A stretch of DNA of 64,000 bases from an uncultured Thermoanaerobaculia bacterium (GTDB taxonomy: Bacteria > Acidobacteriota > Thermoanaerobaculia > Multivoradales > JAGPDF01), in the NCBI GenBank assembly GCA_964481735.1, contig CAYZWR010000001.1, positions 29,300-93,299 of the forward strand, read 5' to 3'. The notes beneath the pieces are model-generated. The model did no database searches, was not told the origin of the DNA, and saw only the letters and a list, made by a program, of their open reading frames with translations. Position numbers and translations under genes: made by a program. Of this stretch, positions 18,071 through 22,554 are shown in pieces (positions within the stretch are counted from its first letter, which is position 1; every line of letters starts with the position of its first letter).

Positions 18071-18796
18071 TCACGGCTGTTCGTCGCCCCCGGCGTGCTC
18101 CTCGACCTCGAGCACGATCACCTTCTTGCCCGGCTCCCCCTCGCCGACCATCACCCTCGGCTTGGGCGCCGACTCGCGCAGCGCCTGGATCACCAGATCC
18201 TGAGTCGCGGCGTCGAGCGCCTGGAACTTCGCCGTGCTGCGCAGGCGCTCGATCGTCGCGTCGACCGAGAGCGGCAGGGCGACCGCCGATCCGTCGCCGC
18301 TCGTCCAGGCGAAACTCGAGCCGTCGCCGTCGAGGCGACGGACGATCTTCACCTGCCCCTCCTCGGCGCCGGCACCGGAGTGGAAGACCATGGTGTTGCC
18401 CCCGCCGTCGGCGTCGCGCAGCTCGATCTGGTGCCGGCGCAGCACGACCTCTCCCTCGCCCGGCGCCGCGTCGAAGTGGTCCTCGAGGCGCAGCGTCTTG
18501 CCGTCGACCTCGACCGTGAAGCCCGCCTCGTCGCGGGTCACCGTGACCGGCTTGCCCGACTCGCTGGTGAAGCTGCGGCTCTCACCCACCGCGAGCGCGT
18601 GCAGATCCTCGAGCACCATCGCCTCGTGGCCGCCGTCGCGGTCGAGCACCAGCTTGATCTCCGATTTCATCTCGGCCGCCGAAGCAGCGGCGTCCTCGTC
18701 CGTCGCCATGCCCCAGGCCGCCACCGCGCCGAAGGCGAGCAGCAACGCAGCCAGGGTGAGTCGGCTCCTGCCGGTGAGCTTGCGATTGCCATGCAT
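18071..18796 (-). CDS. secreted hypothetical protein, sigma-54 dependent
   Basis: ATG 18796 after AAGGAG; signal peptide MHGNRKLTGRSRLTLAALLLAFGAVAAWG; 241 aa acidic Gly/Asp-rich periplasmic protein. Confidence 0.65.
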   Translation of the reverse strand: MHGNRKLTGRSRLTLAALLLAFGAVAAWGMATDEDAAASAAEMKSEIKLVLDRDGGHEAMVLEDLHALAVGESRSFTSESGKPVTVTRDEAGFTVEVDGKTLRLEDHFDAAPGEGEVVLRRHQIELRDADGGGNTMVFHSGAGAEEGQVKIVRRLDGDGSSFAWTSGDGSAVALPLSVDATIERLRSTAKFQALDAATQDLVIQALRESAPKPRVMVGEGEPGKKVIVLEVEEHAGGDEQP

Positions 18797-18847
18797 GTTC
18801 GCGTCTCCTTGTTGGACCGGCGGCTCGTGCCGCGCAGCGGAGGAAAA

Positions 18848-18863
18848 GGCAAGGACGATGCCA
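18848..18863 (-). promoter_or_regulatory. sigma-54 (-24/-12) promoter TGGCATCGTCCTTGCC
   Basis: Minus-strand read gives TGGCAT-N5-TTGC with exact GG-N10-GC spacing, ~50 nt upstream of ATG 18796; inverted repeat GTGGA-N5-TCCAC at 18878-18892 just upstream. Confidence 0.6.
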
Positions 18864-18945
18864 ATCGCCGGAGCCCCGTGGACGCGCTCCACCGCCCGCG
18901 GCGCTACGCAGATGGGGAGATCGCTCCTCAATTCGGGACTCGCTC

Positions 18946-20337
18946 TCAGCCCTCGCCGGCACCGGCCGCGCCGCTCGCCCCTTCGACGAGACCGTGCTTC
19001 TCCAGCCGGTAGAGGAACGCCTTGTAGGGCAGGTCGAGCAGCCGGGCGGCCCGCGCGCGGTTGCCGCCGGCGTGCTCGAGCGCCTGGCGCAGCAGCTCGC
19101 GCTCGTGCGCTTCGAAGGAGAGCCCCTGGGGAGGCAGCCGGAATCCGCCCTCGCCCTGCGCCCGGCGCGAGAAGCTCTCCGGCAGGTCGGCGGGGCTCGC
19201 CTCGCCTCCTTCGGCGAGCAGCACCAGGCGCTCGACGACGTTGGCGAGCTCGCGCACGTTGCCCGGCCAGGCGTGCTCGAGGAAGAGCTTGTTCACGGCG
19301 GGACCCAGACGGACCTCGGGCAGTCCGTGACGCCGCGCCGCGCGGGCCACGAAGTGCGCGGCGAGCAGCGGGATGTCCTCGCGCCGCTCGCGCAGCGGCG
19401 GCACCTCGAGGGGCACGACGTTCAGGCGGTAGAAGAGGTCCTCGCGGAACCGGCCGGCGGCGACTTCGGCGGCGAGGTCCCGGTTGGTCGCCGCCACGAT
19501 GCGCGCGTCGACCGCGATCTCGGTGGTCGAGCCGACCCGCTGGATCCGCCCCTCCTGGAGCGCGCGCAGCAGCTTGGGCTGGAGCGGCAGCGGCAGCTCG
19601 CCGATCTCGTCGAGGAAGAGCGTTCCGCCCGAGGCCTGCTCGAAGCGTCCCGGACGGCTGCGGTCGGCGCCGGTGAACGCGCCGCGCTCGACGCCGAAGA
19701 ACTCCGACTCGAGCAGCCCCTCGGGAATCGCCGCGCAGTTGACCGCGACGAAAGGCCGCGCGCTTCGCGCCGAGAGTCGATGCAGGGCGCGCGCCGCGAG
19801 CTCCTTGCCGGTGCCGCTCTCGCCCGACAGCAGCACCGTCGCCTGCGTGCCGGCCAGCCGCTCGACCCGCGCGAACAGGCGACGCATCGCCACCGATCGT
19901 CCCACCAGGTCGACCAGCCGGTCGCGTCCGCCGATCTCCTCGGCCAGCCGCCGGTTCTCGCGTTCCAGGCGGCGGCGCGCCAGCGTGCGCTCGAGCGCGA
20001 GGCGCAGGGCGCTGCGCTCGAACGGCTTCGCCAGGTAGTCGTCGGCACCGGCGCGGATCGCCTCGACCGCGCGCTCGATGGTGCCGTAAGCGGTGACCAT
20101 CACGAAGGCGCAGTCGGCCTCGCGTGCCCGGAGGCGCGCCAGCAGCTCGCCGCCGTCGCCGTCGGGAAGTCGCCAGTCGGAGAGCACCAGGTCGACCGGC
20201 GCGCGCGCGAGCTCCGCCTCCGCCGCGGCGAGCGAGTCGGCCTCGGCGACCGCGTAGCCCTCGGCCACCAGCAGGTCGACCAGCAGCCGGCGCTGATCGG
20301 CCTCGTCTTCGACGACGAGCAGCCGGGCGTCGCTCAT
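18946..20337 (-). CDS. sigma-54-dependent response regulator (NtrC family: REC-AAA+-HTH)
   Basis: REC (LLVVEDE…[14 protein letters not shown]), Walker [15 protein letters not shown] sigma-54 contact motif, ESELFGHEKGAFTGA-like region, C-terminal HTH; ATG 20337 overlaps kinase stop. Confidence 0.9.
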
Positions 20338-21740
20338 CCCGTGCCGCCGCGGCGATCGCCGAGCTCGAGACGCGCCACCGTCCCCCCTCCGTCGCGCGGC
20401 GAAAGGGTGAGATCGCCGGCGTAGCGCCCGGTCGCCAGGCGGTGGGCGAGGAAGAGACCCATCCCCGAGCCGTGCGGCTTGGTCGTGGTGTGCGGCTGGA
20501 AGAGGCGCGCACGGACCGCCTCGGCGAGCCCGGCGCCGCGGTCGAGCACCTCGATCGTGACGCCACCCGGCGGCTCTTGGCGCGCCGCGAGGCGCAGCGT
20601 GACGAGAGCTCCGTCGCCGCTCGCCTCGCAGGCGTTGACCACCAGCGCCTGCAGCATGGCCTTGAGCTCGGCGGCGACCGCCGAGAGCTCGAACCGCTCG
20701 CCGGCGGGGCTCTCGACCTCGAGGCGCACCCGGCCGCCCGAGTCCTGCAGCGCTTCGAGCGCCACCTCGCGCGCCAGCAGCGCGAGTCCGACCCGCTCGG
20801 GCGCCGCATCGCCCGCCGAGGCGAGGGCGAGGAAGGAGCGCAGGGCGCCGTCCATCCGCCGGATCTGGCGGCGCGACGCGGCGAGCAGCAGCTCGCGCTC
20901 GGCCGCAGGCGCGTCCGCGTTCGCCACCCACTGCTCGAGCGACAGGCCGAGCGCGTTCAGGGGGTTGCGCAGGGTGTGCGCGAGCCCGCGCGCGACCTCG
21001 CCCAGCTCGGAGAGGTGCTGCTGCTCGGCCAGGCGGCGGTTCTCCGCGGCGAGCTCGCCGAGGCGGTGCGACATCTGGTTGAAGGAGGCGAGCGCGCGGC
21101 CCAGCTCGTCGCTCCGGTCGACCGGCACCTCGAGGCCGAGCTCCCCCTGGCCGACCCGTTCGGCGGCCGCGGCCAGGCCGGCGAGCGGCCGGCTCATGCG
21201 CTGCGCCAGCACCGCCGCGGCGAGGAGGCCGAGCGCCAGCAGCGCGAGATTGCCGGCGAGCAGCCGCGAGCGGAAGCGGGCCAGCGTCGAAGCGACCTCG
21301 TCCTGGGGAATCGGGATGGCCCGTTCGAGCGCCGGACCCTTGAGAAACAGGACGTCGCGCTCGGCCTCGTCACCGAGGATCATCCGCGCGCCGCCCGGCG
21401 GCTCGCCCGCGACCGTCGCCGCGGCGGCGCCGTCGCGCCCCTCCCAGCGCAGCTCCTTGCGCACCACGATCCGCTGCGGCGCGTCCGCCGGACTCTCGCC
21501 AGGGTTCTCGGGGCGCGGCGTGACCACCACCACGTGGGTCTGGCTCTCCGCGCCCCCGCCCGCCGGACTACCGCTCTGGAAGACGAAGCCGGAGACGATC
21601 TGCTCGCCCACCTGGAAGGCGACGCTGCGCACGTCGTCGCCCACCGCCCTGGCGAGCGCGCGGTAGAGCAGCCACTGCCCGGCGGCGAGCAGGCTGACCA
21701 GCCCCCCCAGAAGCACGAAAAAACGCCATCGGAGAGTCAT
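20334..21740 (-). CDS. sensor histidine kinase (periplasmic sensor-HAMP-HisKA-HATPase)
   Basis: Two TM helices flanking ~140 aa periplasmic loop, H-box LAHTLRNPLNAL, G-boxes DRGAGL / GSGMGL. Confidence 0.85.
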   Translation of the reverse strand: MTLRWRFFVLLGGLVSLLAAGQWLLYRALARAVGDDVRSVAFQVGEQIVSGFVFQSGSPAGGGAESQTHVVVVTPRPENPGESPADAPQRIVVRKELRWEGRDGAAAATVAGEPPGGARMILGDEAERDVLFLKGPALERAIPIPQDEVASTLARFRSRLLAGNLALLALGLLAAAVLAQRMSRPLAGLAAAAERVGQGELGLEVPVDRSDELGRALASFNQMSHRLGELAAENRRLAEQQHLSELGEVARGLAHTLRNPLNALGLSLEQWVANADAPAAERELLLAASRRQIRRMDGALRSFLALASAGDAAPERVGLALLAREVALEALQDSGGRVRLEVESPAGERFELSAVAAELKAMLQALVVNACEASGDGALVTLRLAARQEPPGGVTIEVLDRGAGLAEAVRARLFQPHTTTKPHGSGMGLFLAHRLATGRYAGDLTLSPRDGGGTVARLELGDRRGGTG

Positions 21741-21783
21741 CCCCGATGGCGTCGAAGCAAGGGGCGTGCCTCTTCGTGCGGGA

Positions 21784-22554
21784 TCAGGCCGTCTTGCGGC
21801 GCGCCAGCAACGCGAGGCTGCCGACGGCGAGCAGCAGGACGAGCGCTGCGATGCCCCAGCTGCCGAGCGTCGGGACTTCCTGCGTCACCGCGGCGACGGC
21901 CGTGGTCCCGCTCAGCGAGTAGACGAGATCCGGATCCGGACCGCCGACCCCGCAGCCGACCCGGTTGGCCCAGGTGGTGCAGCCGCTGCCGAAGCCGTTG
22001 CCCGGATTCTGCCAGACCGAGCCGTCGAAGCTCTGCACCGTGCGCTCGGTCCAGCCCCACTGGCCGCCGACCCCGAAGTCCATGTTGGCGATGACCGAGA
22101 CCCAGTGCTTGCCTTCCGGAAGGACGCAGGCGGCGGGCAGGGTGATCGTCAGGGTCCCGGCCGAGTCCCCCGGGATGACGCCGGTCGAGGAGCACTCGAC
22201 ACCGCCCGGAAGCCCGGTGTTGTCGGCGTAGAAGTTGACGTCGACGCTCACCAGCGGGCCGAAGCCGTTGAAGTAGACGCCGGGGACATAGACGTCGGTC
22301 ACCGTCCAGGTGACCCCGGCGGGAACCTCGAAGTCGTCGGCTGCCGCGTTGTCGTAGGCGTCGAAGGAGGCCTCGAAGTTCTGGCTGCTGATGCTGTTGG
22401 CGCCGATGTTGTCGGTCTGGTCGTAGAGCACCGAGCCCTCGGGGGCCTGGAGGGCCGCCGGCGCGACCGGCGCGGAACGGGCCGGCTGGAGCGCGGCGAG
22501 CGGCAGGGCGAGCAGCGCCATGCCGAGGAGCGAAAGGCAGATGCGGTTCTTCAT
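21784..22554 (-). CDS. secreted protein with C-terminal IPTL-CTERM sorting signal
   Basis: ATG 22554 after AGGAGG; signal peptide; C-terminus [30 protein letters not shown] matches IPTL-S-E-W-G / TM helix / Arg-Lys tail architecture. Confidence 0.65.

Follow-up and report, generated by a model that had tools for sequence, protein, structure and literature searches.

A Conserved Histidine Kinase, NtrC-Family Regulator, and Exported Protein Predicted to Form a Sigma-54-Dependent Module in Thermoanaerobaculia

Sigma-54-dependent two-component systems that have their target gene close at hand are textbook material. Among the described examples, ZraPSR of E. coli and Salmonella responds to envelope stress, and ZraR drives the sigma-54 promoters of both zraSR and the gene for the periplasmic protein ZraP (PMC4987338). 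More generally, sigma-54 and its activators co-occur, and approximately 43% of those activators are two-component regulators (PMC3162934). Here we consider a locus of this kind in a 64-kb stretch of DNA (hereafter the window; 72% G+C) from an uncultured Thermoanaerobaculia bacterium, in which five co-directional genes occupy minus-strand positions 17202–22554. Three of them encode a histidine kinase (HK), an NtrC-family response regulator (RR), and a 241-amino-acid protein that we call T241, and we hold with considerable confidence that the locus is a dedicated sigma-54-dependent two-component module with T241 as its local target.

Read in the direction of transcription, the five minus-strand genes encode an IPTL-CTERM-like exported protein (21784–22554, recognized by sub-threshold profile matches and by its homologues); HK (20334–21740, 468 amino acids, from Pfam and hydropathy); RR (18946–20337, 463 amino acids, from Pfam and motifs); T241 (18071–18796, an open reading frame with an N-terminal hydrophobic segment); and a YceI-like periplasmic protein (17202–17921, assigned by synteny and PF04264). 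The coding signature is clear in all five, with G+C at third codon positions of 0.91–0.94 and at second positions near 0.5. The RR start overlaps the HK end by 4 nt in the sequence ATGA, through which the two genes are translationally coupled, and 149 nt separate RR from T241. The original prediction, made from the letters of the window, had proposed this order of kinase, coupled regulator, a gap put at 150 nt, and signal-peptide protein, and each of these features lies where it was placed.

The arrangement is not peculiar to the window. The order HK, RR, T241, YceI-like gene was seen in all 13 of the Thermoanaerobaculia genome loci that we fetched, which together with the window make up the 14 sequences of the T241-promoter alignment. 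Starting from two distant members of the family, and from a scan of metagenomes, we arrived at eight further, distant metagenomic loci, where T241 identity is only about 26–43%; HK, RR, and a T241 homologue recur together in seven of them, and the eighth (L023) does not extend as far as HK and RR. HK and RR lie upstream of the T241-family gene in every one of the 21 loci whose length allows this to be judged, and identity among T241-family proteins across the 22 loci, window included, spans 26–88%. In other words, these three genes are strictly co-inherited over distant lineages, while all their other neighbors change. The layout conserved in 22 loci strengthens the central proposal made for the window, that of a kinase, an NtrC-family activator, a −24/−12 promoter, and a secreted target.

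The promoter in question is TGGCATCGTCCTTGCC (18848–18863, minus strand), identified by motif scan and by conservation. Its GG lies at 18862/18861 and its GC at 18850/18849, 52 nt 5′ of the T241 ATG (18796), in good agreement with the near-consensus element of exact GG-N10-GC spacing that had been proposed about 50 nt upstream of this gene. Sigma-54 promoters start transcription approximately 12 nt downstream of the GC, and the T241 transcript is predicted to begin near 18837. Within the window alone, the evidence for the motif over chance is modest. A loose sigma-54 16-mer with two mismatches has 17 matches against 12.7 expected, which is no enrichment; for the strict core GGCAY-N5-TTGC there are three matches where 0.5 would be expected. 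Two of the strict matches are intergenic, within the module, and on the correct strand: TGGCATCGTCCTTGCC and a second site, AGGCACGCCCCTTGCT, before HK, both with exact GG-N10-GC spacing. A scan with a sigma-54 motif had been proposed as a check, and the strict core recovers both the promoter originally named and this additional one. The third strict match (52622–52635) falls within codons 2–6 of an ABC-2 permease gene and was discarded.

Conservation supplies the decisive evidence. TGGCAY-N5-TTGCC precedes the T241 ATG by 52–67 nt in all 14 aligned sequences; TGGCA and TTGC are invariant in these orthologous intergenic regions, and invariant columns make up 10 of the 16 positions of the promoter against 17 of 150 elsewhere in the spacer (Fisher p = 1e-5). 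A GG-N10-GC promoter also precedes the T241 homologue in each of the eight distant loci. Because the motif is conserved at the T241-family gene in 22/22 loci, the assignment of a sigma-54 promoter before T241 is well supported. One might still argue that the GG-N10-GC matches are due to chance, or are conserved for some other reason, and that the genes use sigma-70-type promoters; the loose motif is, after all, no commoner in the window than in shuffled sequences, and one strict match lies inside coding sequence. However, a scan of 17000–23000 found no sigma-70-like site, the diagnostic positions of both motifs are invariant in all loci while the flanks drift, and both motifs stand at fixed distances from start codons beside an activator with a GAFTGA loop. 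We give this explanation almost no credence.

Two other elements fall in the predicted T241 leader. An inverted repeat, GCGGC-N4-GCCGC, found by alignment (18820–18833, minus strand, +5 to +18), is near-invariant in 13 of the 14 loci. Compensatory changes were not found in a covariation test of the repeat, which leaves an RNA hairpin and a DNA site indistinguishable, and its fold is no more stable than those of shuffled sequences. A Shine-Dalgarno sequence, AAGGAG, lies at 18805–18810, 8 nt 5′ of the T241 ATG. An Rfam search of 16500–23500 gave no match at E ≤ 1.

The regulator itself is of the type that such a promoter calls for. RR matches REC (PF00072, 1e-26), Sigma54_activat (PF00158, E 1.1e-70), an AAA lid, and HTH_8 (PF02954, 6e-11); its sequence carries the ESEFFG and GAFTGA motifs, and the phospho-acceptor of the REC domain can be read from the translation as Asp54. 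RR has everything that defines an NtrC-type bacterial enhancer-binding protein: REC, GAFTGA-bearing AAA+, and a Fis-type helix-turn-helix. The best NCBIfam matches are AtoC (429.9 bits, cut-off 714), NtrC (411.8, cut-off 558.6), and ZraR (389.5, cut-off 760); with scores under all three equivalog cut-offs, RR was rejected as an orthologue of any one of them. HK combines HAMP, HisKA, and HATPase_c domains (Pfam). Hydrophobic segments at about residues 7–26 and 158–183 would enclose an extracytoplasmic loop of about 131 amino acids by hydropathy, close to the 140 originally estimated for a periplasmic loop. In the alignment of orthologues this loop is a variable, low-complexity insert between short conserved segments. 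One locus (L012) has HK and RR reading as a single 949-amino-acid open reading frame (3913–6762), which may be a fusion or an assembly error.

Where RR might bind is suggested by the same comparison among loci. An inverted repeat just upstream of the −24 element, GTGGA-N5-TCCAC (18892–18878), had been offered as the activator site. The repeat is present in the window, but even L003, the closest relative, no longer has it intact (GCGAA...TCCAT there), and nothing comparable occurs in the remaining loci; we rejected it as a conserved activator site. The conserved element between RR and T241 is a different palindrome, TCCCSAWWTSGGGA, lying further upstream and often present in tandem 20 bp apart. 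It spans 14–16 bp, with a strong form, TTCCCCAWTTGGGGAG, in other Thermoanaerobaculia loci. When every locus was scanned at a threshold of 12 bits with a position weight matrix trained on 12 Thermoanaerobaculia sites, all of them outside the window, the sole match in the 64 kb was a distal candidate enhancer, GTCCCGAATTGAGGAG (18924–18939, centered near −94). A weaker, degenerate proximal copy, TCCCCATCTGCGTA (18905–18918, centered near −74), lies 20 bp from it and aligns with TTCCCCAWTTGGGGAG of the other loci. In every locus an equivalent palindrome is the unique or best match 5′ of the T241 promoter. This holds also for loci that contributed nothing to the training (L003, L016, L018, and L021–L026), where the match likewise falls between RR and the target, and tandem copies 20–21 bp apart also occur in L003, L016, L018, L022, L023, and L024. 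The distance from the palindrome center to the GG of the −24 element ranges from 29.5 to 139.5 nt across lineages; it is 39.5 nt within Thermoanaerobaculia, and 49.5 and 69.5 nt in the clade of the window, which has an 11-nt insertion. We infer that TCCCSAWWTSGGGA is the RR binding site.

It could be objected that the T241 promoter, though real, is served by an enhancer-binding protein encoded elsewhere, and that the adjacent two-component system controls other genes. Sigma-54 activators can work in trans from any position in the genome, and this much favors the objection. Against it, the adjacency of RR, palindrome, promoter, and target is kept in every locus even though RR identity between loci is only 60–81%, the palindrome of the window begins 7 nt past the RR stop codon, and RR is the sole sigma-54 activator encoded in the 64 kb. 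We regard an outside activator as improbable.

The second strict match, AGGCACGCCCCTTGCT (21756–21771, minus strand), lies 16 nt 5′ of the HK ATG (21740) and was identified, like the first, by motif scan and conservation. The original prediction named a single sigma-54 promoter and missed this conserved one directly before HK. In its consensus, RGGCACGNCCCTTGCT, GGCAC and TTGC are invariant in all 10 aligned loci. The flank upstream of it is unrelated among loci: in the window it is the IPTL-like gene's 3′ end, four loci have a gap gene in divergent orientation there, and the rest have other genes. Over this flank the promoter is enriched for invariant positions (Fisher p = 1.3e-6). In ten loci, namely the window, L021, and eight further Thermoanaerobaculia loci, the TTGC stands 14–17 nt from the HK start codon; a comparable motif is found 44–85 nt upstream of the HK start in L016, L022, L024, and L026, and the form GGCAC-N5-TTGC also precedes HK in L022, L024, and L026. 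With transcription beginning some 12 nt past the GC, and the promoter only 14–17 nt from the start codon, the HK transcript is predicted to start near 21745 and to have a leader of 2–6 nt. Such a leader has no room for a Shine-Dalgarno sequence, and the HK-RR mRNA would be nearly leaderless. A limited literature search turned up no description of leaderless sigma-54 transcripts, nor anything specific on sigma-54 in Thermoanaerobaculia.

T241 agrees with the acidic, 241-amino-acid signal-peptide protein of the original prediction, in that it has one N-terminal hydrophobic segment resembling a signal peptide and a mature part with an isoelectric point of 4.6. Its 47 close homologues are all unannotated, those with a named source coming from metagenome-assembled genomes of Thermoanaerobaculia, and a profile search (E ≤ 1e-3) places about 620 cluster representatives in the family. 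Acidity and a signal-peptide-like N-terminus are family-wide, Asp plus Glu making up about 22% of residues and Lys plus Arg about 11%. Two AlphaFold (AF2) models of T241 have pLDDT values of 65–68, and both show a confident six-stranded beta domain (residues 44–105) and a helical hairpin (178–209). Histidine reaches at least 5% in 47 of 188 family members, and His-rich loops and C-terminal tails of the HDHDHEH type are seen in the variable region of P0133, P0150, P0164, P0187, and P0193–P0195. The pattern of histidine and acidic residues in these family members hints at cation binding. We would conjecture, by analogy with ZraP, that T241 is most likely a periplasmic accessory for envelope stress or cation binding, possibly feeding back on HK.

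That last point can be pressed further. T241 might be mainly a signaling accessory that binds the HK sensor loop and exerts negative feedback, in the style of ZraP on ZraS or CpxP on CpxA, a reading that overlaps with that of T241 as the target of the module. It gains from the co-inheritance of HK, RR, and T241 described above; from the two-promoter architecture, which parallels that of zraP and zraSR (PMC4987338); and from the HK loop, which, being short, poorly conserved, and of low complexity, would suit sensing through a partner. Set against these points, a Pfam scan shows T241 to be without homology to CpxP, Spy, or ZraP, and a search for similarity between T241 and the HK loop found none. 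We see feedback as the chief role of T241 as a possibility to be entertained, if not the one we would expect. A bolder proposal goes beyond it: T241 would found a family of periplasmic accessory proteins with a new fold, serving as an obligate third component, controlled by sigma-54, in a pathway for envelope or cation stress that is widespread among Acidobacteriota. The family would be functionally like ZraP or CpxP but unrelated to them, and the HK-RR mRNA, transcribed by sigma-54, would be leaderless. This we find rather doubtful.

Returning to the dedicated module with T241 as its local target, we envision the following sequence of events. HK, in the membrane, would sense an extracytoplasmic or envelope cue and, given the intact domains of both proteins, phosphorylate Asp54 of RR. 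RR would then bind the tandem TCCCSAWWTSGGGA palindromes just past its own stop codon and, through its GAFTGA loop and ATP hydrolysis, open the complex of the sigma-54 holoenzyme at TGGCAT-N5-TTGCC. The resulting T241 mRNA would carry some 41 nt of leader with a strong ribosome-binding site, and Sec would export its product as an acidic periplasmic protein of an unannotated family. The HK-RR operon would be transcribed from its own conserved sigma-54 promoter, with positive autoregulation probable, as in zraSR; autoregulation is plausible by that analogy. In Thermoanaerobaculia, the YceI-like periplasmic protein, encoded downstream, is a constant companion with a promoter-like motif of its own.

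Several results count against this scheme. First, a search for open reading frames with an RpoN box revealed no rpoN, either across the window or across the 216 kb of loci that were fetched, and that the genome has sigma-54 is deduced from the activator alone. Second, the weight-matrix scan located no palindrome near the HK promoter, and autoregulation of HK-RR would require either control exerted over about 2.8 kb or a different activator. Third, in most Thermoanaerobaculia loci only 39.5 nt separate the strong palindrome from the GG downstream of it, a short distance for an enhancer. The remainder concern the target. Neither T241 nor any of ten distant relatives matches a family in Pfam or NCBIfam (E ≤ 0.01); PDB sequences compared with the family profile yielded only alkaline phosphatase noise at E of about 0.1; Foldseek comparison of the T241 models with the PDB gave a best E of 0.16 and no fold match; the middle third of the protein, a variable Gly/Asp/Glu-rich stretch, is modeled with low confidence; and T241 of the window is not itself His-rich, with 6 His among 211 mature residues.

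The downstream boundary of the module is less sharp than the original prediction supposed. A strong hairpin terminator was said to follow T241, and a good GC-rich hairpin of 12 bp, 11 of them GC, does lie at 17997–18026 (minus strand; fold z = −2.5), but it is followed by TCACTTTTGG, an interrupted T-tract that belongs to a conserved motif; it may serve as a partial terminator. Of 12 other loci examined, 8 have a hairpin here; in L009, L011, L012, and L014 it is weak or missing. A bipartite motif of 43 nt, CTCACTTTTGGCAGTTCC-N16-GTCTAAC (17955–17997, minus strand), has the T-tract itself as its 5′ end; it lies 5′ of the YceI-like gene and is conserved even where the hairpin is missing. Each of the 14 Thermoanaerobaculia loci has a single copy of its consensus, CTCACTTTKGKCAGTTCC-N16-GTCTAWYC, and the spacing does not vary. 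The motif resembles a promoter, or an operator, that would serve the YceI-like gene. By eye, its spacing and the orientation of its −35 part do not fit a sigma-70, sigma-54, or canonical extracytoplasmic function (ECF) promoter, and we could place it in none of these classes. Looser GTTCC-N16-GTCTA matches occur elsewhere in the window at 36825–36853 (minus) and 45470–45498 (plus).

The YceI-like gene lies directly downstream of T241 in every Thermoanaerobaculia locus. Because the T-tract belongs to a conserved motif and this gene always comes next, the module is not cleanly closed after T241. In the distant loci L016, L018, L021, and L022, the gene is replaced by unrelated ones, and the YceI-like protein has no homology to what distant loci encode in fourth position. 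Its occurrence is confined to the module as found in Thermoanaerobaculia, and it stands outside the wider core. The protein of the window scores 20.9 bits against PF04264, for which the gathering cut-off is 23.7, and the family matches all 11 orthologues at E ≤ 0.1 (best E 7.7e-9). Four histidines (His38, His48, His50, and His216; THKAG..AHDH) are invariant in 11 of 11 orthologues, which suggests a metal or ligand site atypical of the description of the YceI family. The YceI-like open reading frame of L010 (7902–8648) contains an in-frame stop, and a pseudogene or an assembly error is possible there.

On the upstream side, the original prediction had set the IPTL-CTERM-like gene next to the module, and comparison shows it to be an unrelated neighbor: the gene is absent upstream of HK in all other loci. 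In six of them (L009, L010, L012, L014, L016, and L022) a gap-pgk-tpiA(-secG) cluster abuts HK divergently, and this gap-pgk-tpiA-secG cluster lies at 172–3761 in L016, at 1–2325 in L022, and, on the plus strand, at 22653–26013 in the window. Since the window has the same cluster that adjoins HK elsewhere, the IPTL-like gene is a lineage-specific insertion outside the module. Even the chromosomal neighborhood of the module is conserved, the gap cluster being shared by the window and distant loci. Other insertions are found at this junction in L022, where a 75-amino-acid gene and a long inverted repeat resembling a miniature transposable element (CCGTCATCCCCGCGAAAGCGGGGATCC...GGATCCCCGCTTTCGCGGGGATGACG, 2735–2830) lie between gap and the HK gene.

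A hairpin of 14 bp followed by T6 (21722–21753, minus strand) spans the HK start codon, close behind the HK sigma-54 promoter; at −32.5 kcal/mol (z = −4.5) it was matched in stability by none of 200 shuffled sequences. It is likely a terminator of read-through from the inserted gene, and a transcript from the HK sigma-54 promoter would miss most of its 5′ arm. This hairpin also bears on the suggestion that the module and the IPTL-CTERM-like exoprotein share a regulon, the latter being an upstream cargo co-regulated with the former. The gene is indeed co-directional and only 43 nt upstream of HK in the window. Yet a strong hairpin with its T6 tract separates it from the HK coding region, no sigma-54 motif or palindrome was found upstream of it, and in other loci it is missing from this position, where gap (GAPDH) or unrelated genes abut HK. 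We judge common regulation highly improbable.

As for the IPTL-like protein itself, its tail consists of VPTLGSWG, a membrane helix, and RRK at the extreme C-terminus. The tail was identified as IPTL-CTERM in the original prediction, with TIGR04174 as the means of checking it. The identification is reasonable, and three homologues (P0202–P0204, 62–64% identity) carry PF18203, but the copy in the window falls below both curated cut-offs, with 18.4 against 20.5 bits for TIGR04174 and 17.6 against 20.8 bits for PF18203. Homologues of the N-terminal domain bear PF18203, PF07589, or PF18962 tails (IPTL-CTERM, PEP-CTERM, and type IX secretion, respectively), and this domain is of the "choice-of-anchor" type.

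Some features elsewhere in the window may be recorded here. A plus-strand gene at 14002–15420 encodes a fusion of an antibiotic biosynthesis monooxygenase-like (ABM) domain with phage tail-sheath domains (PF03992, PF04984, and PF17482, according to the L001 annotation), and a small second ABM gene lies at about 12985–13314. Translations of open reading frames further point to a signaling protein of the REC-PAS-GGDEF-EAL type (48448–51342, plus strand) and to an ABC-2 transporter pair on the minus strand (51355–53555), with its ATPase at 52638–53555 and its permease at 51355–52641.

The module does not overturn current understanding. What it offers, first, is a concrete regulatory prediction (kinase, activator, enhancer, two sigma-54 promoters, and target) for the Thermoanaerobaculia, a poorly studied and largely uncultured class of Acidobacteriota. 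Second, it ties an unannotated family of some 620 clusters to a defined signaling pathway, which provides a starting point for functional assignment. Third, a near-leaderless sigma-54 transcript, if it proves true, would bring together a promoter class and a mode of translation that are not usually paired.

How, then, does the locus compare with systems already described? The sorting signals of the IPTL-CTERM and PEP-CTERM classes concern the neighboring gene only: its VPTLGSWG, hydrophobic helix, and RRK are of this type, although the tail lies below both curated thresholds and the gene is unlinked to the sigma-54 module. With AtoSC and NtrBC the locus shares the REC, AAA+ (GAFTGA), and HTH_8 architecture of its regulator, the translational coupling of kinase and regulator, and tandem palindromic candidate enhancer sites two helical turns apart upstream of a −24/−12 promoter. 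It differs from them in that its predicted target is no metabolic operon but a secreted protein, and in that RR scores below the AtoC and NtrC equivalog cut-offs. NtrC recognizes the site TGCACC-N5-GGTGCA, which TCCCSAWWTSGGGA does not appear to resemble.

ZraPSR is the closest analogue, by architecture only. Both systems have a membrane kinase with a periplasmic loop and an NtrC-family sigma-54 regulator, and both have sigma-54 promoters, here predicted, for the two-component operon and for an adjacent periplasmic-protein gene; ZraR is among the top three NCBIfam matches of RR, and some members of the T241 family resemble a metal-binding protein in their abundance of His, Asp, and Glu. The differences are equally plain. 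T241 is without homology to the CpxP/Spy/ZraP (LTXXQ) family and is predicted to consist of a beta domain and a helical hairpin; the genes are co-directional here, whereas the zra genes are divergent; RR reaches 389 bits where the ZraR cut-off is 760; and the HK mRNA would be nearly leaderless. The system is thus of a well-known kind, and what is unusual in it is confined to the unannotated target family and, possibly, a leaderless sigma-54 transcript.

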